Shown here piece by piece: positions 4,001 through 58,347 of a stretch of DNA of 64,000 bases (positions are counted from its first letter, which is position 1; the number at the start of each line of letters is the position of its first letter). The stretch is from IMG/VR virus record IMGVR_UViG_3300006925_002811. One strand, 5' to 3'. This stretch comes from an uncultured virus (IMG/VR IMGVR_UViG_3300006925_002811) (Duplodnaviria; Heunggongvirae; Uroviricota; Caudoviricetes). Position numbers and translations under genes: made by a program. The notes under the pieces were generated by a model. The model saw only the letters and a list, made by a program, of their open reading frames with translations, did no database searches and was not told the origin of the DNA.

Positions 4001-4077
4001 TGGTGGGCCCTGTAGGATTTGAACCTACGACCTGCCGATTATGAGTCGGATGCTCTAACCATCTGAGCTAAAGGCCC
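4001..4077 (-). tRNA. tRNA with CAU anticodon, most likely tRNA-Ile2 (lysidine type)
   Basis: GGGCCTTTAGCTCAGATGGTTAGAGCATCCGACTCATAATCGG...GGTTCAAATCCTACAGGGCCCACCA; resembles ileX-type, lacks the initiator GGG/CCC anticodon stem. Confidence 0.9.
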
Positions 4078-4081
4078 TAAT

Positions 4082-4158
4082 TGGCGTCCCCGGCAGGAGT
4101 CGAACCTGCAACCTACGGCTTAGAAGGCCGTTGCTCTATCCAATTGAGCTACAAGGAC
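4082..4158 (-). tRNA. tRNA-Arg(UCU)
   Basis: GTCCTTGTAGCTCAATTGGATAGAGCAACGGCCTTCTAAGCCG...GGTTCGACTCCTGCCGGGGACGCCA. Confidence 0.95.
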
Positions 4159-7672: not shown

Positions 7673-7996
7673 ATGACATTTGTAGTAGGAAGCCCTTGCG
7701 TTGGCTGTAAAGATACTGAGTGTGTAACTGTTTGTCCTGTAGACTGTTTTTATGAAGGCCCAAACATGCTTGTCATTGATCCAGATGAATGTATTGACTG
7801 TGCGTTGTGTGAACCAGCATGTCCGGTTGATGCTATTTGGAGTGAGGATGAACTACCAGCAGATCAAATTCCTTTTATAGCCATTAACGCAGAAAAAGTA
7901 GAAGAATACAAAAACATTATTGATCAGCAACCTGCTATGGCTGAAGCCTCACCCTATTCAACACAAGAAGCAATAGATCTAATCCTAGCAGAATAA
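7673..7996 (+). CDS. fdxA: 7Fe ferredoxin (FdxA type)
   Basis: [18 protein letters not shown] and [12 protein letters not shown]. Confidence 0.92.
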
Positions 7997-8349: not shown

Positions 8350-8418
8350 TTTTAATTCTCCCAAATGTTTATGTGATAAAGAATATCTTTATCGTTACTA
8401 TTATTTATCACTTTAGCC

Positions 8419-16900: not shown

Positions 16901-17260
16901 CGAAGCACTACCATAAGTACCTGCTGTTAGTCCAGAGACATCTGCAATATGTACACCACTTGCATTTGCTTCTATACCAGTTCCACCAACAACATTGAAT
17001 GTTGCGGATGTTTTACTTAAACCGTTTCCTGAACTGTATGGATCGTTGGCTATCGGACGCCATTTACCTGCCGCCGCACTATATTGTAGTATTTGCGTAT
17101 CAGTAGGTGCGTAACCGCCGATTGCGTTTACGTCGGATAAGTCATTAAGTTCAACACCGCCAATGCTTAATGCATTTTCGCCAGCATTAACTCTTACAAA
17201 TTTTAATGCTTTGCCGTTGTAATCCGAAGGACTATCTGTTAAATCAAGAAATGTTGCCAT
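13940..17260 (-). CDS. Tail-fibre-like protein with collagen triple-helix repeats
   Basis: [24 protein letters not shown] fibre motif, long G-X-Y runs, GQVLKYNG repeats, [14 protein letters not shown]. Confidence 0.88.
14800..15250 (-). repeat. Collagen-like (Gly-X-Y)n coding repeat
   Basis: [16 protein letters not shown] / [16 protein letters not shown] runs; 9-nt periodic DNA. Confidence 0.9.
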
Positions 17261-17314
17261 ACAATATTATCCATCAAGTGTTCTTAAGTTGCTATTAACA
17301 ACTATTTATCACTC

Positions 17315-17743
17315 TTAAGCAGAAAGGATTATATTGTTTATTTGGCCGTATGAGACATCGTAGGTTTCGCCGTCACCTATGTATGATCTGTCCATATAAC
17401 ATCTAATAAAGGAAAAATTGCCTTTAAATGTGTATGCTTCAGACTTAACACCTGGTGCGTTTGCATTGAATTGAATATATCCAGCATCGTTCCATGCGGC
17501 ACTACCGGCATATAAACCTTCTGATGGATCAACTACGACATCAAACCAATCATCATCTGTTGGAGTCAACGATAATGTGGCTTGTATTTTGAATCTGCCT
17601 ACATAATTACTGTAGACTACTTGTATTGTGTGAATGCCATCGGTATACCCGTAATAACTGTCACCCTTGACAGTATCGGTGTATTTGTTCATTTCAGTGC
17701 CTGTGGCACCCATTAGTGTAACGCTTCTTCTATCTATTGGCAT
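17315..17743 (-). CDS. Conserved late/structural hypothetical protein
   Basis: 142 aa, KGDSYYGYTDGIHT...IQATL; directly upstream of fibre cluster. Confidence 0.75.
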   Translation of the reverse strand: MPIDRRSVTLMGATGTEMNKYTDTVKGDSYYGYTDGIHTIQVVYSNYVGRFKIQATLSLTPTDDDWFDVVVDPSEGLYAGSAAWNDAGYIQFNANAPGVKSEAYTFKGNFSFIRCYMDRSYIGDGETYDVSYGQINNIILSA

Positions 17744-17754
17744 TTTTTATTCCT

Positions 17755-17805
17755 CTAGCAACAAGTACAGTTGCAACATTTACAGCACTTACATTGGTTG
17801 TCCAT
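17755..17805 (-). CDS. Cys-rich micropeptide MDNQCKCCKCCNCTCC (16 aa, 8 Cys)
   Basis: Not in ORF track; AAGGAG RBS about 7 nt upstream of ATG, GATAAATA at 17828-17835, stop abuts RBS of next gene. Confidence 0.75.
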   Translation of the reverse strand: MDNQCKCCKCCNCTCC

Positions 17806-17827
17806 GTTATTCTCCTTCTCTATAATG

Positions 17828-17835
17828 TATTTATC
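17828..17835 (-). promoter_or_regulatory. T4-like late promoter motif GATAAATA (representative)
   Basis: Same octamer just upstream of genes at 336, 354(+), 2534, 8402, 11881, 17303, 24124, 29864, 42672, 51045(+), 58307(+), 63437; TATAAATA at 7075(+), 27127. Confidence 0.8.
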
Positions 17836-18568
17836 ACTTTATAATAAAACATTTTGTTATCTGTAGATCGGTATTTGGGTGTGCTAATGCTAAGAAAGTT
17901 TTTAAATTATCAATTTCTTTTTCGTTAGTGTAGAATACACAATCCCACCATGCTCTTCTGCGGAATCTAATATTGTTAGGATCTATATTGTCTTCGAAAA
18001 AATGTTTTATTTCTTCAATCTTTTTACGCCTTAGATCGTAAGTAACTCTTGTTGGTCTTGCAGACACTTTTATGTTATACTTGTTCCAGTAAGGTTTTTT
18101 CCTAACAGCAACATCTATTTTTTTGTCTTGTAATAACTTTTTGTGTTTTGTACTCCAAGGCCCTGAGCATTGTTCAACATTGTTTGGTAACTTTTTTAAT
18201 ACTTTAGTATAGAAGTCTTTATCTTTGCAATAAACAGTAACCGTTCTCGAATAGTAATCTGTATAGAAACGCAAGTTAGCATATAAATCAATTGTTTGCA
18301 CTATGTCTTTTCTTATTTGCAGAGCACCGTAAATTTTTTGAGACTTAACTAAATTAATATAACCAGAAATCCACAGATCTTCATCAGTACTGCTTTTGCT
18401 AAAATTGTATGCATTTTCGGGCAATTCAAAGTTTCTCATTGCCTCTTCTACAGCCGGTTCTATATCATATTTAAAGTTTAACTTTATCCTATAAGGGTAC
18501 CTACCAAAATATATCCTATCACTAGGCTTTGCAGAAAAGTTTTTAGATTCATTGCCTAGTAATTTCAT
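17834..18568 (-). CDS. Basic hypothetical protein
   Basis: 244 aa, immediately downstream of clpA. Confidence 0.75.
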   Translation of the reverse strand: MKLLGNESKNFSAKPSDRIYFGRYPYRIKLNFKYDIEPAVEEAMRNFELPENAYNFSKSSTDEDLWISGYINLVKSQKIYGALQIRKDIVQTIDLYANLRFYTDYYSRTVTVYCKDKDFYTKVLKKLPNNVEQCSGPWSTKHKKLLQDKKIDVAVRKKPYWNKYNIKVSARPTRVTYDLRRKKIEEIKHFFEDNIDPNNIRFRRRAWWDCVFYTNEKEIDNLKTFLALAHPNTDLQITKCFIIK

Positions 18569-24102: not shown

Positions 24103-24136
24103 AACATAAACTCCTGTTACAACTATTTATCATTTA

Positions 24137-27328: not shown

Positions 27329-28081
27329 ATGTCCAGAAGAGCTAGAAAGAAAAACTGTAACAAATACAGAAAAAATAAACAACAAGGAGACCATTTGAGA
27401 GTAATACAAGGCGGTGCACCATTAGAGAGAATCCGCAATAAATCAGTCACAATCACACCAAGAAACTTCCATCAAGACGACCTCATAGGACTACTGGAAG
27501 ACAAAAACATTAATATAGTTTTTGCAGTAGGACCAGCAGGCACAGGCAAAACCATTATATCAACACTACAAGGAATCAAAGCACTCAAGACGGGTGGCTG
27601 TGATAAATTTGTAGTGACGAGACCAGCAGTCTCAGTTGACGAACAACATGGATTTTTACCAGGAACATTACAAGAGAAGATGGCGCCATGGACGCGACCT
27701 ATCTTTGATGTCTTTGAGGAATACTATACACCAGATCAAATCGAATACATGCTAGGCGATAACAAAGTAGAGATAGCACCATTGGCATATATGAGAGGTA
27801 GAACATTTAAGAACTCTTATATTATTGCAGATGAAATGCAGAATGCTACAGATAGCCAAATGAAAATGCTACTAACTAGAATAGGAGATAATAGTAAATT
27901 GGTAGTAACAGGTGACTTAGCTCAACATGATAGAGGATTTGAATCCAATGGTCTTAAAATGTTTATTGAACGTTTGTTATCGAGGCAATCCGATAGAATC
28001 AAATTAGTAAACTTTGATAATGGGGATATCGAAAGACACCCTGTTGTTGATGAAGTCTTAAGGATTTACGACTCAGTTTAG
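27329..28081 (+). CDS. phoH: PhoH-family ATPase
   Basis: GPAGTGKT, GFLPG, YMRGRTF, DEMQN, GDLAQHD, RHPVV. Confidence 0.95.
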   Translation: MSRRARKKNCNKYRKNKQQGDHLRVIQGGAPLERIRNKSVTITPRNFHQDDLIGLLEDKNINIVFAVGPAGTGKTIISTLQGIKALKTGGCDKFVVTRPAVSVDEQHGFLPGTLQEKMAPWTRPIFDVFEEYYTPDQIEYMLGDNKVEIAPLAYMRGRTFKNSYIIADEMQNATDSQMKMLLTRIGDNSKLVVTGDLAQHDRGFESNGLKMFIERLLSRQSDRIKLVNFDNGDIERHPVVDEVLRIYDSV

Positions 28082-29509
28082 CAGTTGTTCCTTTTTTAGT
28101 ACAATGTAACTCTGGATATGTTCTTCCGGAGTTGCATTACCTAAAGCATCTTCACAAATCTTTTCCCAAGGATCTATAGGCACAGAATATGTTTTTTTAG
28201 AAAACATTTGCTTTGCTATTCTCTGAGCAGAGTCAAAGTTACAATGTTCGTGTTGGTAATTGTATAATGCATTCACACCATCTGTAGTTTCACGTTCCTC
28301 TAATACTGTGATACCATACTTCTCAGGATTTTTTACAAAGTCTGAATTATGGTTTGCTCTGCCATGCATTTTTTCTAATAGCAATGGTTGTATTTGTAAA
28401 TCTGCTAAGTTGTTCTTTCGTATGTAATCAACAGACTCCCACATGTGTTCTATTGGTTCGTGAGGTAAGCCTACTATTTGTGTTGCAAACTTATGCCAAT
28501 GAGGGTATGTTTCTTTTATGTAATGCATGTTGCTAAAACTTTTATCTCTGTTCATTGTTTTCTTAATGCCTTTACTTGCCTCTGGGTGAAATGACTCAGT
28601 ACCCCAAAAGTGATAATGTACACCACATTCATCCAACCAATCCATCTGTTTCTTCTTGCCAATCATTACATCAAACCTAATGAATGCTGATATTTTTGGT
28701 TGATAGTTTAATTGTTTAATAGCATCTAGTAAGTATAGTATTTTTGTATCGTCCTCATTGAGAGTATCGTCTACACAATTAAAGTGTGTGATTCCATATT
28801 TTTCATTTGCTACTTTAAAAAATTCTAGTAATGCATCAGTTCCAGCATCATTAGTATTTTTAACATTGCGGAATTCAAATGCACAAAAACTACAATTAAA
28901 CTTACAGCCTAGTCTAGTTTCAAACCCAACTACATCACTAGGTTGTAAACAGTAGTCATCAAACAGTTTACTAACTATAGGCATCTCAACAAGTTCAGAA
29001 TCGCTTTTTGGTCTATAAACTGGAACGTTGCCGTACTCATAAGATAAGCATTCACTACTGATAGGCAAGCCGTCCATCCAGTGTTCGAACAAGTGTATTG
29101 ACCTGCCCATAAACATTAAATCTGGCTTTACATCATCGAATCTAAACCTGTTATTAGGACCTCCAATAATAACTGTTATGTCGTATTTTAACCGTAATTG
29201 CTTAATGATATAGTATGTTACAGTAGTATTCTTGAACATATTAGTGTTAAAAAGTGTGCTACAGAGCACGAGAGGGCGTTTAACAGCATGTTTATTACAC
29301 CATGCTACTATGTGTTCTACTATCTCATTAGGCTCCCAAAACTCAACCCAATTGATAACAGTACTGGGAACATCTCGTTTTAGTATCATTTCATGTAATG
29401 CAAACGGTGCCAGCGGACGCATCAGCATGTCTTTGCCTGCGTCATATCCTAATGCTTTATTTGTATTAGTTAACTCTAGAATTAGAGCACCATCAAAATG
29501 GTTAGCCAT
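28073..29509 (-). CDS. Radical SAM protein, B12-binding (class B)-like architecture
   Basis: GCKFNCSFC, N-terminal IIGGP Rossmannoid domain, DDT, GTES, IVGLP. Confidence 0.85.
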   Translation of the reverse strand: MANHFDGALILELTNTNKALGYDAGKDMLMRPLAPFALHEMILKRDVPSTVINWVEFWEPNEIVEHIVAWCNKHAVKRPLVLCSTLFNTNMFKNTTVTYYIIKQLRLKYDITVIIGGPNNRFRFDDVKPDLMFMGRSIHLFEHWMDGLPISSECLSYEYGNVPVYRPKSDSELVEMPIVSKLFDDYCLQPSDVVGFETRLGCKFNCSFCAFEFRNVKNTNDAGTDALLEFFKVANEKYGITHFNCVDDTLNEDDTKILYLLDAIKQLNYQPKISAFIRFDVMIGKKKQMDWLDECGVHYHFWGTESFHPEASKGIKKTMNRDKSFSNMHYIKETYPHWHKFATQIVGLPHEPIEHMWESVDYIRKNNLADLQIQPLLLEKMHGRANHNSDFVKNPEKYGITVLEERETTDGVNALYNYQHEHCNFDSAQRIAKQMFSKKTYSVPIDPWEKICEDALGNATPEEHIQSYIVLKKEQLLN

Positions 29510-29510
29510 T

Positions 29511-29843
29511 TTACCTAGTCTTGCGTATTTGGTAGTCGAATGGTTCTACTGTTTTTATTTCAAAAGGTTTACCAAATGCATCAACTCCTACGATCCATGT
29601 TGGTTTCTTTTTAGTTATTTTTTTAAGTAAGAATGTTTTCATTGTGCGTTTAATTGTTTTTGTACCTCTGTCACTAATTTCAGTCTCATTGTGAAACCAT
29701 ACTGTTAGTTCGTACTCGTTAACAAATAAAGCAATAAACCATTCCCACAGTCTTTTGTACCAAGGCAGACGTTTGATAGTAGTATGCTTTTGCTCTACTA
29801 CTTCTTGTTCTTTTGCCTGTTTTTTAGTTGGTACTTCTGCCAC
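29511..29843 (-). CDS. Hypothetical basic protein
   Basis: 110 aa, GGAG RBS, late motif at 29864-29871. Confidence 0.7.
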   Translation of the reverse strand: MAEVPTKKQAKEQEVVEQKHTTIKRLPWYKRLWEWFIALFVNEYELTVWFHNETEISDRGTKTIKRTMKTFLLKKITKKKPTWIVGVDAFGKPFEIKTVEPFDYQIRKTR

Positions 29844-29866
29844 TGTGTTCTCCTATGTAGTAGTAT

Positions 29867-31315
29867 TTATCTACCCTGTAGCCATTTGCTCTTGTTTTTG
29901 ATGTACCGTTTCACTATAAAATTGCGTTGTTGGTTAGCCAAGTTGTAATGATCGTTATACCAACGCCATTTTTCTCCAGGAATAAGTGTTTGCAATCCAA
30001 ATATTTCATGTGAAGTAAACTTGGATTCTAAGTTGTCACCTAAGTATATGTCTATTTTTGATGATAAGTCATCTGCACCGTCTGAGTCTGTCCAATCGTT
30101 TTGCCACACTTGTGAACTATACCCTAACTCTTCCCATTCCTTATCAGACCCTATAATCTCGTACCCAAACTTTTCAGGGTTTTTATCAAAGTCGCTCTCA
30201 ACGTCTGGATTTTCTAAGTTGCTGTATAGTCTCAAAGGATTACAGCCGCCGCTTGTTAGTAACTGCTCATCAACAATTTTTTCACAGTTCTTCCAAATGC
30301 TATCTTCTTTATCGCCAGTTAGTCCTATAATAAGATTACCGAATGTAAATGCTTCTGGGTATTCATTTTTTACCATTCGCAACGACTGTAGCATTCTTTC
30401 TGGTTTACCACCTTTACGAATTATTTTTGTTACTTCGGGTGTTAAACTTTCTATGCCAAAGAACATGCTGTTGATTCTTGCTTTTTGTATTAGTTCTATT
30501 TGATGTGGTTTTGCACCAAGTACGTCTGCTCTAGTAAAAGCCATGTAATTAGGTTTAAAGTCTAATTGATCATTAACTTTTGCTAACAGTTCTAACTTTG
30601 TGTCAACTTCGTTAATAGTATCATCTGCTAATACAAAATTAGTAATACCAAATTTATCGTGTGCAGACTTAATACTATTAAACAACTTCTCCTCATCTAT
30701 AAGTACAGGATTTTTATTGTTACGGAAATCGTATCCACAAAAACTACAATTAAACTTACAGCCTAATGCAATTTCAATAGTGTGTGTTTCACCTTCGTGC
30801 CAAAAGTCTTCTTCTTTTAGTATAGGTGCTACAGGTTTTTCTAGTATTTTGCCATGTGGGTTTTTATATGTTAGTGGATCTGTGGCAAACACATACTCAC
30901 TGATATCTTCTTTTTGTAACCACCTAGTAAATATATTTCCACTACGTCCTATGAACGCCATGTCTACCCAACTGCTTTCTCCAGTAGGAACACGATAGCC
31001 TCCAAGCATGACTTTGAGTTGTGGTACTTCTCTTTTTATTAGATGTACTAGTGTTTTAAATTCTTTTGTACTGCTACCGTCAATAGAGCCGCTTAGTCCT
31101 ATCCATGGTTCGTCGTCGTCTGCAAACCATTCTATAATGCTGTCTCTGATTAGTGCTGTGGACCAATTTCTCCAATAGTCAATGTTAGTTGCCTCAACAC
31201 CTAAGTTGTTTGCAACTTGTACAATATGCAGAGCACCGGAGGCTCTACTGTTGTTTTGTAACTGTCCTGCTCTTGTAGGCTTAGTTCCTAAGTCTGAGAG
31301 AAGTACAAATTTCAT
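29867..31315 (-). CDS. Radical SAM protein, B12-binding (class B)-like architecture
   Basis: GCKFNCSFC, MLGG, DDTIN, FFGIES, IIGLTG; paralogue of 28073..29509. Confidence 0.87.
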   Translation of the reverse strand: MKFVLLSDLGTKPTRAGQLQNNSRASGALHIVQVANNLGVEATNIDYWRNWSTALIRDSIIEWFADDDEPWIGLSGSIDGSSTKEFKTLVHLIKREVPQLKVMLGGYRVPTGESSWVDMAFIGRSGNIFTRWLQKEDISEYVFATDPLTYKNPHGKILEKPVAPILKEEDFWHEGETHTIEIALGCKFNCSFCGYDFRNNKNPVLIDEEKLFNSIKSAHDKFGITNFVLADDTINEVDTKLELLAKVNDQLDFKPNYMAFTRADVLGAKPHQIELIQKARINSMFFGIESLTPEVTKIIRKGGKPERMLQSLRMVKNEYPEAFTFGNLIIGLTGDKEDSIWKNCEKIVDEQLLTSGGCNPLRLYSNLENPDVESDFDKNPEKFGYEIIGSDKEWEELGYSSQVWQNDWTDSDGADDLSSKIDIYLGDNLESKFTSHEIFGLQTLIPGEKWRWYNDHYNLANQQRNFIVKRYIKNKSKWLQGR

Positions 31316-39466: not shown

Positions 39467-40313
39467 AATATGTATCCAATGTTGTTTCTGATATATTTAG
39501 ATATTGCTTTCGCTGTCTAAAGATAATATCTAAGTTGGGAGCCGCATTTGGAATAAGATTCTCGATAGTATAACTGTTTTCGTTGCCTACTGCATTACAG
39601 TTATATCCTCTAATCTTATGATTCAACTCGCCAAAGTCTAGATCTTTATCGTTATCAAATTTTCTAAGTACTACACCGTTTGACACATAGTTTGCTGTGG
39701 TTGTGAACACGTCATCAGTGTCACAAATAATTGAAGGTACATTACCGTCTGAGGTCTGTGTGTCCATTAGTATGCTAAATCTATTATTAGCACTTAAAAA
39801 TGTGTAGTATCTATCACCTGTCTTTGTAAACTTAAATCCAATCTCTTGGTAAAAGTCTCTCATTCTTGCGTCGATACTATTGTAAATAATACCGCTTACA
39901 TAATTTAGTCCTTGTTCGTTGCCTGGACTTTTAGTCTTTTCGAGTTGATGTAGAGAGCGTTGTAACTCACCAAACTCTTCTTCAGGCATTAACAATGTAC
40001 GCAACCCTACATTTGGTCCTGCTGGAGTAGTTTTAATATACATACCAGTATCATCTGGATCAGGTTTAGCACCAATACGTTGTATTACGTCCTTGCTACA
40101 GATAAAACCAATACCACTAATGCCTACTTTTTCAGGATTGCTTACAGACTTTATTATTAGTATACATAGATTCTGTGTCCATACAGTAACAGCACCTGTG
40201 CTGTTCCTTGTGCGTTTAGCAAAGCCAAGTTTTGTTAGTTGATCCTCTACCATGTTTATAGGCATAGTCGCAGGATCGTATGTGTATTCTAAGAAACTGT
40301 AGTCTACTTCCAT
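39444..40313 (-). CDS. HPPD-like (VOC/glyoxalase fold) protein lacking Fe ligands
   Basis: YSFLEY..LGF..VTVWTQ..II N-domain; ICDTDDVFTT; IIFRQRK. Confidence 0.6.
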   Translation of the reverse strand: MEVDYSFLEYTYDPATMPINMVEDQLTKLGFAKRTRNSTGAVTVWTQNLCILIIKSVSNPEKVGISGIGFICSKDVIQRIGAKPDPDDTGMYIKTTPAGPNVGLRTLLMPEEEFGELQRSLHQLEKTKSPGNEQGLNYVSGIIYNSIDARMRDFYQEIGFKFTKTGDRYYTFLSANNRFSILMDTQTSDGNVPSIICDTDDVFTTTANYVSNGVVLRKFDNDKDLDFGELNHKIRGYNCNAVGNENSYTIENLIPNAAPNLDIIFRQRKQYLNISETTLDTYYADNQTQ

Positions 40314-40711
40314 TATATATTAAACGTTACGCTCTCACCACATCCACAAGTACTTTCAGCAAGTGGCGATGATATCTCAATCATGTTACCTGCTATACTA
40401 GTTTTCTTGTCTACAGTACTGCCTATAAGATAAGGTTTACTCATGTTATCTAAGTAAAAACTCCATCCTTCGAATGCTATAGTAAATTCATCTAATCTTA
40501 CTGATGATGTATCCTCTACCATTTCCCATTCGTAAGCAAATCCGGCGCAACCTCCTCCTGTTAGTTTTAATCGAATGCCGTGTACATTGCTCTCTTCTGC
40601 TACTTGTTTGAAGTGAACCTGAGCACTCGGCGTTATGGTTATAAGTTCTTTTTTTGGATCGAATGTTTGCATACTAGTATTTAACCGTTTTGCATCGAAA
40701 ATTAAGTACAT
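40313..40711 (-). CDS. A-type Fe-S carrier (IscA/SufA/ErpA family)
   Basis: GGGCAGFAY and CGCGES. Confidence 0.92.
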   Translation of the reverse strand: MYLIFDAKRLNTSMQTFDPKKELITITPSAQVHFKQVAEESNVHGIRLKLTGGGCAGFAYEWEMVEDTSSVRLDEFTIAFEGWSFYLDNMSKPYLIGSTVDKKTSIAGNMIEISSPLAESTCGCGESVTFNI

Positions 40712-41782: not shown

Positions 41783-41811
41783 ATTATACATGCTAAATTG
41801 CTTAATGTCAA
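41783..41811 (-). promoter_or_regulatory. sigma70-type promoter for clpP operon
   Basis: TTGACA-N17-TATAAT. Confidence 0.8.
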
Positions 41812-42203
41812 GCATTAGCAATGTTTTTTATTTGGTTGAGCATTGCCTGTAAGCCTTGCTTCTTTGCTAGTGATAAATTAGTTCCAAGAAATTTGTAGTC
41901 GTTGTATTCTATTTGGTTAACTTGGTCGACTGTTTTACCACCGATAGTATCACATAGTATGTATGCTATACCATTAGTAAACATTGTGTTACTGTAAAAA
42001 TTAAAGTACCATTTGGATTCTTTTTGTGTTCCTGCTATCCAAACGTTGCTTGTACAACCTCTAACATAATTTGCATTTACGCATACTTCTCTGCTGTTAG
42101 ATTTGTCTGCCTGCTTACCAACTGCCATTAACCAATCATTAAACTGGCTCTGGCTGTTAAAGTCTCTTACTGTTTGACGTATTTGTTCTAAGGTTTCAAG
42201 CAT
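41808..42203 (-). CDS. sufE: SufE-like sulfur acceptor
   Basis: VRGCTSNVWI with active Cys; start re-placed to MLETL after TAAATA. Confidence 0.75.
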   Translation of the reverse strand: MLETLEQIRQTVRDFNSQSQFNDWLMAVGKQADKSNSREVCVNANYVRGCTSNVWIAGTQKESKWYFNFYSNTMFTNGIAYILCDTIGGKTVDQVNQIEYNDYKFLGTNLSLAKKQGLQAMLNQIKNIANA

Positions 42204-42275
42204 ATAGATATTTATTAGTAGAGTCATAAAAAAGGCCCACTTAGTGAGCCTTAATTGTTTGAAGTGTTAGTAAAT

Positions 42276-42461: not shown

Positions 42462-42723
42462 TATATTCTCCGAATCTAAATAGTTTAGCATCCGTATTCA
42501 CATATTCTCTCGAACTATGCTGAGGGGTTAAAGTTCCTTAACTTTTGTATGATCTCTATAATGTGCTGTACTTTCGCAATAAAGTCTACAGTGGATACAC
42601 ACCACGGCAACACTAGACAATCAACAACCGTCCTCTTGTGGAAGAAGGAGTGCTTTTCTAACTTCCGCTGATATTTATCATATAATTAACTGATGTGTTA
42701 AGTTATTGGGTATTTTTAGTCAA

Positions 42724-50945: not shown

Positions 50946-51055
50946 CCTTTTTGTATAGAAAACATGCACTTAACCACCTTTAAACAGCGATTTATGTTAA
51001 ATTACGTTATAATTCTGTAATCTGTTAACAGGAATGTTAATGATGATAAATAATT

Positions 51056-52143: not shown

Positions 52144-52743
52144 TTAATAAAAGGCATTAGATGTGTCACTGTGGTCAGTAACATCTTTAACACCTGTTAA
52201 TTCTGGAAGTTCGTCCATTAGTTGCTTTTCAACACCATATTTAAGAGTTACATCAACTTGGGCACAACCTTGGCACCCTCCACCAAAACTTAGTATTGCA
52301 ACTTTGTCTTCTGTGATTTCAACTAAGTTGCACTCGCCACCGTGTGCGGCAATACCTGGGTTTACATCATTCCATAATACATAATTAACTTTTTCTTCTA
52401 GTGAGGCATCTTCACCTAGTCTAGGTAGTTTACTGTTAGGTGCTTTTATTGTTAGACTTCCACCGTATTCTTCTTGATCATAATTAACAGTTGCTTCATG
52501 TAAGAACTTAATACTTTGCTCATCGAGGTACACATTCAAGTGTTCAAACTCACGAAGTACTGTACCATCGTGATTACCTTCTCTACAATATGTTAATAAT
52601 GTTTCTGCTTTAGGAGTACCTGCTTTGTCAACATATAAACGTACACCAATAACATCATCTTGCTTAGATAGTAGTTCAGCCAAATACATCTGGGCTGGTT
52701 CAGTTACAGTTATACTATATTCATCTAGTGTTATTGTTGTCAT
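52144..52743 (-). CDS. nfuA: Fe-S biogenesis protein NfuA
   Basis: Degenerate A-type N-domain (AGTPKAE, LTIKAPN) plus Nfu domain GGCQGC, DVTDH. Confidence 0.93.
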   Translation of the reverse strand: MTTITLDEYSITVTEPAQMYLAELLSKQDDVIGVRLYVDKAGTPKAETLLTYCREGNHDGTVLREFEHLNVYLDEQSIKFLHEATVNYDQEEYGGSLTIKAPNSKLPRLGEDASLEEKVNYVLWNDVNPGIAAHGGECNLVEITEDKVAILSFGGGCQGCAQVDVTLKYGVEKQLMDELPELTGVKDVTDHSDTSNAFY

Positions 52744-58270: not shown

Positions 58271-58347
58271 AGATAATACACCTAAATAAATTTTTGATAG
58301 TTTTATGATAAATACTTATATCAATACAACATGTAGGAACACTATAA

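Follow-up and report, generated by a model that had tools for sequence, protein, structure and literature searches.

A 16-residue, eight-cysteine peptide gene of a marine phage and its possible metallothionein-like product

What could a phage gain from a gene of 16 sense codons, half of which specify cysteine? The question is raised by a 64,000-nucleotide (nt) stretch of DNA from an uncultured virus of the Caudoviricetes (IMG/VR record IMGVR_UViG_3300006925_002811), here called the window, in which the minus strand, read from position 17805 to 17755, carries 17 codons from ATG through TAG that translate to MDNQCKCCKCCNCTCC. This peptide has 16 residues, 8 of them cysteine, in the pattern CxCCxCCxCxCC. 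As described below, the micro-gene is very probably a real gene, and it belongs to a previously undescribed family of small peptides that probably bind metals. Whether its product is a minimal, unmodified metallothionein-like peptide we regard as about an even question, to be weighed against several other functions that such a peptide, or its codons, might serve.

The reading frame and its expression signals

The initial annotation of this locus had described an open reading frame (ORF) of 16 amino acids (aa) with 8 cysteines, preceded by its own AAGGAG ribosome-binding site and TGATAAATA motif and ending at the next gene's ribosome-binding site. Each of these elements was confirmed by the sequence (Table 1), and the distance from the micro-gene stop to the ATG of the downstream gene, which encodes a protein of 142 aa, is 11 nt. 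The same annotation held that the frame is no simple DNA repeat, and this was borne out, as Tandem Repeats Finder called no tandem repeat at the micro-gene; on that ground a simple repeat is ruled out as the origin of the cysteine codons. We observed only one 12-codon stretch with 8 cysteines in all six frames of the window, whereas in 100 first-order Markov simulations the maximum number of cysteines per 12 codons was 5 (78 runs) or 6 (22 runs). The eight-cysteine ORF is not due to chance.

In this phage group TGATAAATA is a promoter-like motif with strong enrichment: we counted 8 copies in the window where 1.69 would be expected, and none of 100 shuffled sequences reached 8. Six of the 8 copies stand 21-42 nt to the 5' side of a start codon on the same strand, including the start of a tail-fibre-like gene at 17260, and in relatives that lack the micro-gene the motif lies directly 5' of the 142-aa gene. 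PHROG families matched by the 142-aa protein are phrog_13657 (E 9e-21) and phrog_14467, "virion structural protein" (E 6e-7), and tail-fibre-like genes come after it; the labels "late" and "structural" for the operon that begins with the micro-gene are, in our usage, inferred ones. It should be noted that parts of the window are covered by contigs from RNA libraries, one of which (run X20, 228 nt) spans positions 17565-17792 and thereby includes most of the micro-gene and the beginning of the 142-aa gene. Their depth is low and DNA may be their origin; we did not count them as evidence of transcription.

A peptide family in unrelated phages and a few cells

A degenerate DNA pattern for CKCCKCCNCTCC matched 8 viral contigs, whose flanking sequences were unrelated to each other except in three near-identical contigs. 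In all 8 of these contigs an ATG lay 1-3 codons to the 5' side of the core and a stop codon 0-1 codon to its 3' side, a Shine-Dalgarno-like site preceded the frame, and another gene began a few bases later. Looser patterns, in which the four non-cysteine codons were left free, matched at least 122 and at least 120 stretches and brought in many further members of the family among microsatellite-like noise; the viral counts given here are lower bounds, and the family has more members than these. In the pooled sequences, at least 222 matches had a non-cysteine residue at all four x positions, and at least 51 distinct loci had an ATG no more than 12 codons before the core together with a tail of no more than 8 residues. 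Among the matches listed, 47 of the 51 loci had no residue at the x positions other than Gly and those that are polar or charged, corresponding to 42 distinct peptides. The residues found at the core x positions of these 42 peptides were restricted to Lys, Asn, Ser, Thr, Arg, Gln, Glu, Asp, His and Gly; the first x position was Lys in 33 of the 42 and the fourth was Thr in 30. One of the 42, from a GC-rich Bifidobacterium frame (L296), looks like noise. A Shine-Dalgarno-like 4-mer was present 5' of the start in 37 of the 47 loci, and the next gene began within 14 nt downstream in 36.

The family can be written as M-x(0-12)-CxCCxCCxCxCC-x(0-8), with at least 47 distinct loci and at least 42 peptides of 13-25 aa. 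Its carriers are unrelated marine phage contigs and, sporadically, SAR86, Porticoccaceae, Cellvibrionales, Oligoflexia and an archaeal metagenome-assembled genome (MAG) of Woesearchaeota. Phage copies have 13-17 residues, 0-4 of which precede the core, and a cysteine content of 50-62%. Both TGT and TGC were used at every cysteine position (41 distinct core DNAs from 44 listed members), which argues that the members share a peptide and not a DNA sequence, and we take this codon variation as a signature of selection on the translated peptide.

We also examined loci that were chosen through a neighbouring gene. The initial annotation had proposed that synteny in relatives keeping the flanking gene at 17315..17743 be used as a check on the ORF, and the outcome was mixed, though not refuting. 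Relatives of the 142-aa gene were fetched without reference to the micro-gene, 80 from metagenomes and 15 from viral contigs. The ORF was present at the same spot in the 7 metagenome relatives closest to the window (L326-L332, with 100, 94, 80, 80, 79, 80 and 78% identity), so that 7 of 7 relatives in this set at 78% identity or above keep it; L326, which is 100% identical, may be the window's own source. In the other 73 of the 80 (76% identity or less) the ORF was absent, as a clean indel, and it was absent from all 15 viral-contig relatives (32-65% identity). Among the seven relatives that have the ORF, the N-terminus varies (MDNQ, MESK, MNIK or MQSK), as do the first x position (Lys, Thr, Glu or Ser) and the fourth (Thr or Ser), and the spacer after the stop codon has diverged, with indels. 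All eight cysteines are kept.

A second set comprised 23 loci that reach the N-terminus of a cytidylyltransferase gene, which follows the micro-gene in another phage group. The family ORF was found in 8 of these loci (5 distinct sequences), where TGT and TGC interchange at 5 of the 8 cysteine codons and no cysteine is replaced, and 12 loci had none. The remaining 3 (L417, L418 and L419) carry directly before the gene a different 16-residue peptide with six cysteines, MCKCESCKCDPCTCSN, which consists of three CxC units with two other residues after each and takes the position of the eight-cysteine peptide in sister contigs. Micropeptides with CxC repeats may form a wider set to which the eight-cysteine family belongs.

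Run X19, which is probably DNA, yielded a contig about 94-96% identical to the window over 1.2 kb that joins position 17757 to position 17823, with four other letters between; it lacks exactly the Shine-Dalgarno sequence and the 16 sense codons, 65 nt in all. This junction and the split between relatives at 78% identity or more and those at 76% or less show that the cassette is accessory and comes or goes as one unit, with no decay. Two unrelated contigs (L169 and L258) have core DNA that differs from the window's by 2-3 substitutions, which fits horizontal spread. In other relatives the place of the micro-gene, to the 3' side of the promoter-like motif and to the 5' side of the 142-aa gene, is taken by a different small ORF of about 55-61 codons (MAKIVSEAVVIEISR...-like), which in Sinorhizobium phage Phosso is annotated as a hypothetical protein. 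The slot seems to accept alternative small genes.

A pattern scan of genomes gave 53 loci, 11 of which were family-like: three in SAR86, five in Porticoccaceae and one each in a Cellvibrionales, an Oligoflexia and a Woesearchaeota MAG. The other 42 were rejected as runs of Cys, Ser, Gly or Arg codons in long frames, or as frames without a start. Within the order of the SAR86 genome the pattern was found in 2 of 201 genomes, the query genome included; the gene is sporadic among the genomes searched, or the pattern is too strict. Two of the 11 cellular loci stand in a metal-homeostasis neighbourhood. In a complete SAR86 chromosome, a MerC-family gene (E 1e-22) lies 70 nt to the 3' side of the ORF, in an islet that holds, within 2 kb, genes for a CopZ-like HMA-domain protein, a pseudoazurin (above cutoff) and an SMR pump, as well as a CsoR/RicR/RcnR-family repressor-like gene about 1.4 kb from the ORF (73.5 bits, under the RicR cutoff). 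The ORF of the Oligoflexia MAG has a metalloregulator gene of the ArsR/SmtB family (above cutoff) directly to its 5' side, in the same orientation, and a hairpin plus T-run to its 3' side. Four Porticoccaceae and Cellvibrionales loci share one version of the ORF, as stand-alone units with a terminator-like hairpin after it. At these four (L291, L297, L308 and L316) the cysteine ORF begins 0-3 nt after the end of a hydrophobic ORF of 28 codons, MEITTGAMVFTCVLLTAIFLSEFWLRDE, which is conserved among them, and a stretch of about 130 nt upstream is conserved as well. Some of the bacterial N-terminal extensions contain one Phe.

By exact look-up in a collection of about 15 billion proteins, none of the five bacterial versions of the peptide was present. 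Literature searches on CKCCKCC, on phage or viral metallothioneins and on cysteine-rich small phage genes gave nothing on this peptide. The GenBank phage collection contained no megablast match to the 2.2 kb around the micro-gene, and blastn with the 61-nt ORF region returned chance matches only, which lay inside large opposite-strand genes in the two cases checked. With tblastn, the 27-residue stop-to-stop translation gave no match, for which low-complexity masking is the probable cause.

Metal binding weighed against other functions

We favour a metallothionein-like peptide because of its composition, its polar spacers, the constancy of the CxC/CC pattern and the two bacterial loci in metal-regulated surroundings. 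The traits in question are small size, CxC and CC motifs, Lys, Ser, Thr and Asn as spacers, and no aromatic residue in the peptide of the window. The initial annotation had offered three functions, and the first of them, a mini-metallothionein or metal store, emerges as the best supported, through conservation at the peptide level and the two bacterial metal contexts, with metal binding itself still putative. According to this model, the micro-gene would be the first cistron of a short transcript from the TGATAAATA site, followed by the virion-structural-like gene; it would be translated, and it would be horizontally mobile. The unmodified peptide, as monomer or oligomer, would form a metal-thiolate cluster with soft metal ions, namely Cu(I), Zn(II), Cd(II) or Hg(II). 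Produced alongside structural proteins, it could buffer or sequester metal in the infected cell, and iron-sulfur (Fe-S) enzymes and Fe-S assembly could be protected from thiophilic metals. Copper attacks Fe-S clusters, and metal buffering is plausible because the phage invests in Fe-S proteins: the window encodes a ferredoxin, two radical SAM proteins and IscA-like, SufE and NfuA-like proteins. A broader proposal, which we put forward only tentatively, is that these peptides could constitute the smallest gene-encoded metallothionein family known so far (13-17 residues, 8 cysteines), moving between ocean phages and occasionally into SAR86- or Porticoccaceae-type bacteria as a cassette of about 65 nt, and serving phages as an auxiliary gene for the control of copper, zinc or mercury in infected cells and the protection of Fe-S-dependent enzymes of the phage.

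Several observations weigh against a metallothionein-like product. Cysteine makes up about 30% of known metallothioneins, as compared with the 50-62% of the peptides described here. No Pfam, NCBIfam or PHROG model matched the 27-residue stop-to-stop translation at E of 10 or below, although composition filters may hide weak matches. The search patterns demanded all eight cysteines, so that cysteine invariance in the pattern-derived set follows by construction; the tight placement of start and stop, the Shine-Dalgarno sequence and the exclusion of hydrophobic residues do not. We scanned the neighbouring ORFs at 29 other family loci (8 + 11 viral, with the window-lineage loci L328 and L330 left out, and 10 cellular), and among the phage neighbours no metal gene was seen. 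In 9 of the 11 cellular loci no metal link was seen either, the neighbours in Porticoccaceae, Cellvibrionales and the other SAR86 genomes being unrelated. Finally, in the core of L326-L332 all 9 codons that end in a pyrimidine (8 Cys and one Asn) are identical in all seven sequences, whereas in the 142-aa gene a single codon is used throughout in only 8 of 28 columns with an invariant residue of this two-fold class, and identity at third positions is about 50%. These frozen codons hint at a constraint at the nucleotide level or at recent spread of the cassette, and selection on the peptide alone is insufficient to account for them. Recent spread is an incomplete answer, because the N-terminal codons and the first x position have diverged.

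Possibly, the peptide serves Fe-S metabolism directly, ligating a [2Fe-2S] or [4Fe-4S] cluster or accepting persulfide as a transient carrier or store for phage Fe-S assembly. Short cysteine-rich peptides can hold Fe-S clusters in vitro, and the phage of the window has the set of Fe-S-related proteins listed above. The proposal rests mainly on one contig, L017, in which an IscU gene (NifU_N, E 1e-37) begins within about 15 nt of the micro-gene and is followed by an IscA-type gene. However, Fe-S genes adjoin the micro-gene in just 1 of the 19 viral contexts scanned, those of the window itself are 10-35 kb away from it, and the informative bacterial contexts concern copper, mercury and ArsR-type metal sensing and not Fe-S assembly. 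We consider such a role unlikely.

It is also improbable, in our estimation, that the ORF is a leader that senses cysteine or tRNA-Cys, with ribosomes pausing on the eight cysteine codons under a shortage of charged tRNA-Cys, and with this pausing, or termination at the overlapping ribosome site, setting translation of the downstream gene. Polycysteine short ORFs are described as cysteine-responsive attenuators in mycobacteria (bioRxiv 10.1101/834739). The geometry of the locus would suit such a function: the micro-gene stop overlaps the downstream Shine-Dalgarno sequence, the next ATG is 11 nt off, and the next gene follows within 14 nt in 36 of 47 loci; moreover, the frozen synonymous sites (9/9 as against 8/28) would be expected if the mRNA or the choice of codons were constrained. 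Yet tight gene spacing is ordinary in phage genomes, and the counting of codons needs neither conserved cysteine spacing nor polar x positions. The downstream genes are diverse (virion protein, IscU, cytidylyltransferase, nuclease and unknowns), with none found in cysteine metabolism, and the Porticoccaceae, Cellvibrionales and Oligoflexia copies have a terminator-like hairpin of their own and no conserved gene after them. The predicted fold argues against a leader as well: the minimum free energy (MFE) was -12.9 kcal/mol (z = +1.2), 184 of 200 shuffled sequences folded at least as well, the downstream Shine-Dalgarno sequence was unpaired in the MFE structure, and there was no terminator-like site between the micro-gene and the 142-aa gene. 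The cysteine-sensing leader that the initial annotation listed as its second possibility is, by reason of its conserved spacing, unrelated downstream genes, stand-alone bacterial copies and lack of a stable fold or terminator, poorly supported.

The peptide might instead be the soluble partner of a single-helix micro-protein or a MerC-type permease, handing over metal at the membrane or regulating its partner. In four loci the MEITTGAMVFTCVLLTAIFLSEFWLRDE ORF lies 0-3 nt before the cysteine ORF; in contig L070 a hydrophobic ORF of 29 codons (550-639) begins 5 nt after it; and in SAR86 a MerC gene follows the ORF. No such partner adjoins the micro-gene in the window or in most viral loci, and we hold a partnership of this kind to be quite improbable. 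It is compatible with metal binding, and it overlaps with the metallothionein-like interpretation rather than excluding it.

That the peptide is the precursor of a ribosomally synthesized and post-translationally modified peptide (RiPP), with thioether or other modifications made, for example, by radical SAM proteins of the phage, we judge very unlikely. Cysteine-dense peptides are typical sactipeptide and ranthipeptide substrates, and two radical SAM genes are located in the same window. These genes are 10-13 kb from the micro-gene, however, and their products resemble B12-type methyltransferases, with scores far below every family cutoff; no match to a SPASM-type maturase was found in either protein. 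The 0-4 residues that precede the core in phage copies provide no leader for enzyme recognition, and no radical SAM, YcaO, lanthipeptide synthetase, peptidase or exporter gene was seen among the neighbouring ORFs scanned at the 29 other loci. The suggestion in the initial annotation that the peptide is a radical SAM substrate of the phage thus finds no support in the distant B12-type enzymes, the 29 loci without a maturase or the missing leader region.

Least credible of all is that the frame is no gene but a chance ORF, or a DNA or RNA element with an incidental cysteine reading: the frozen synonymous sites of the window lineage and the five bacterial versions, never called by gene finders and missing from the protein collection, would fit this, but the same peptide recurs with start, stop and Shine-Dalgarno sequence in unrelated flanks, TGT and TGC interchange without cysteine loss in the cytidylyltransferase set, 8 cysteines per 12 codons arose in none of 100 simulations, no stable fold is predicted, and an Rfam search of the 11 cellular loci returned only tmRNA, tRNA and sub-threshold noise, with no riboswitch.

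If the peptide does bind metals, the lower size limit of gene-encoded metallothioneins would be about halved, and the control of trace metals would be one more auxiliary function with which phages of the ocean equip abundant marine bacteria. The locus also illustrates that genes of 13-17 codons, called by no annotation pipeline, can be conserved, mobile and widespread. Since the peptide is short enough for synthesis, the central claim is open to a direct and cheap test.

The phage of the window and comparison with known systems

The window is part of a large marine phage. The named relatives of its 142-aa protein are from Sinorhizobium phage Phosso, Agrobacterium phage Atu_ph07, Pseudomonas phage PA5oct and Escherichia phage 121Q and its kin, which are jumbo phages; contigs of relatives reach 170-200 kb, and the stretch is present in marine and seawater metagenomes. 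The window further encodes a ClpB-like ATPase, ClpP, DnaJ and PhoH, as well as two 2OG-Fe(II) oxygenases, an NAD synthase, an IMPDH/GMP-reductase-like protein and a beta-ketoacyl synthase. No tRNA-Cys gene was found in its 64 kb. Around the micro-gene in many other viral contigs we observed a recurrent module of DUF6267 (phrog_455), a cytidylyltransferase with DUF5824 or DUF6321, and an AAA_33/Zeta-like (polynucleotide-kinase-like) gene, and in other viral loci PhoH and a PD-(D/E)XK nuclease were neighbours. Coordinates of the micro-gene and of other features are collected in Table 1.

Table 1. Positions of the micro-gene, its signals and other features in the window (or in the contig named)
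Feature	Position or locus	Strand	Remarks
16-codon micro-gene MDNQCKCCKCCNCTCC and stop	17755..17805	-	Same spot in L326-L332; family of at least 47 loci
AAGGAG Shine-Dalgarno sequence of micro-gene	17812..17817	-	6-nt spacer to ATG; read from sequence
TGATAAATA promoter-like motif	17828..17836	-	22 nt before micro-gene ATG; enriched in window
AGAGGA ribosome site of 142-aa gene	17751..17756	-	Overlaps micro-gene stop TAG (17757..17755)
142-aa downstream cistron, virion-structural-like	17315..17743	-	PHROG matches; jumbo-phage relatives annotated structural protein
65-nt presence/absence cassette: Shine-Dalgarno sequence and all 16 sense codons	17758..17822	-	X19 contig junction
TGATAAATA copies, minus strand	2534-2542, 8402-8410, 17303-17311, 17828-17836, 24124-24132, 42672-42680	-	
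TGATAAATA copies, plus strand	51044-51052, 58306-58314	+	
Fe-S-related genes of window	7673-7996 (+), 28073-31315, 40313-40711, 41808-42227, 52144-52743 (-)		
Two radical SAM genes	28073-29509, 29867-31315	-	10-13 kb from micro-gene
tRNA genes Leu-TAA, Met-CAT, Arg-TCT	2550-2636, 4001-4077, 4082-4158	-	
Relatives with alternative small ORF in slot	L004, L007, L010, L013, L337, L339, L340, L344-L346, L348; Phosso L001 2741-2926		
Loci with DUF6267/cytidylyltransferase/kinase module around micro-gene	L020, L021, L070, L161, L162, L165, L180, L184, L197, L198, L212		
IscU and IscA-type genes; CsgG-like lipoprotein gene 1 kb further	L017 3051-3479, 3463-3777; 4772-5608		

Several known systems invite comparison. 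The T4-type late promoter, TATAAATA, is a conserved motif a short way to the 5' side of late or structural genes. The TGATAAATA motif of the window, which is enriched and has 6 of its 8 copies 21-42 nt to the 5' side of starts, including those of tail-fibre-like genes, is a candidate for a promoter of this kind. Precursors of SCIFF peptides, ranthipeptides and sactipeptides, with about 45 residues in all, include a leader region and are accompanied by a radical SAM/SPASM maturase next to them; they are, like the micro-gene product, short, cysteine-dense and ribosomally made, but the latter has neither a leader nor an adjacent maturase. The mycobacterial polycysteine short ORFs are also tiny, unannotated, cysteine-rich and first in a polycistronic message before the next ribosome-binding site; they are leaderless, precede operons for cysteine metabolism and depend on an RNA duplex in which the ribosome-binding site is concealed (bioRxiv 10.1101/834739). 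In contrast, the phage micro-gene has its own Shine-Dalgarno sequence, no stable predicted fold and downstream genes unrelated to cysteine.

Closer to the metallothionein-like interpretation is the SmtB-SmtA pair of Synechococcus, a regulator-coupled metallothionein; SmtA has about 56 residues, and the mycobacterial MymT about 53. In a similar arrangement, an ArsR/SmtB gene (Oligoflexia) or a CsoR/RicR/RcnR-like gene (SAR86) is found near the cysteine ORF, and in Mycobacterium tuberculosis mymT is a member of the RicR regulon, which responds to copper (PMC3944814). SmtA and MymT are longer than the cysteine peptide and unlike it in sequence, and the phage copies have no adjacent regulator. Among short fungal Cu-thioneins, the 26-residue metallothionein of Neurospora crassa was once deemed the shortest of all metallothioneins (PMC4755600). 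The phage peptides, which are putative metal binders, differ in being about half the size of this shortest classic metallothionein, phage-borne and without a match to any sequence model, but they are likewise tiny and cysteine-rich, with CxC and CC motifs, polar spacers and a core that contains no aromatic residue.

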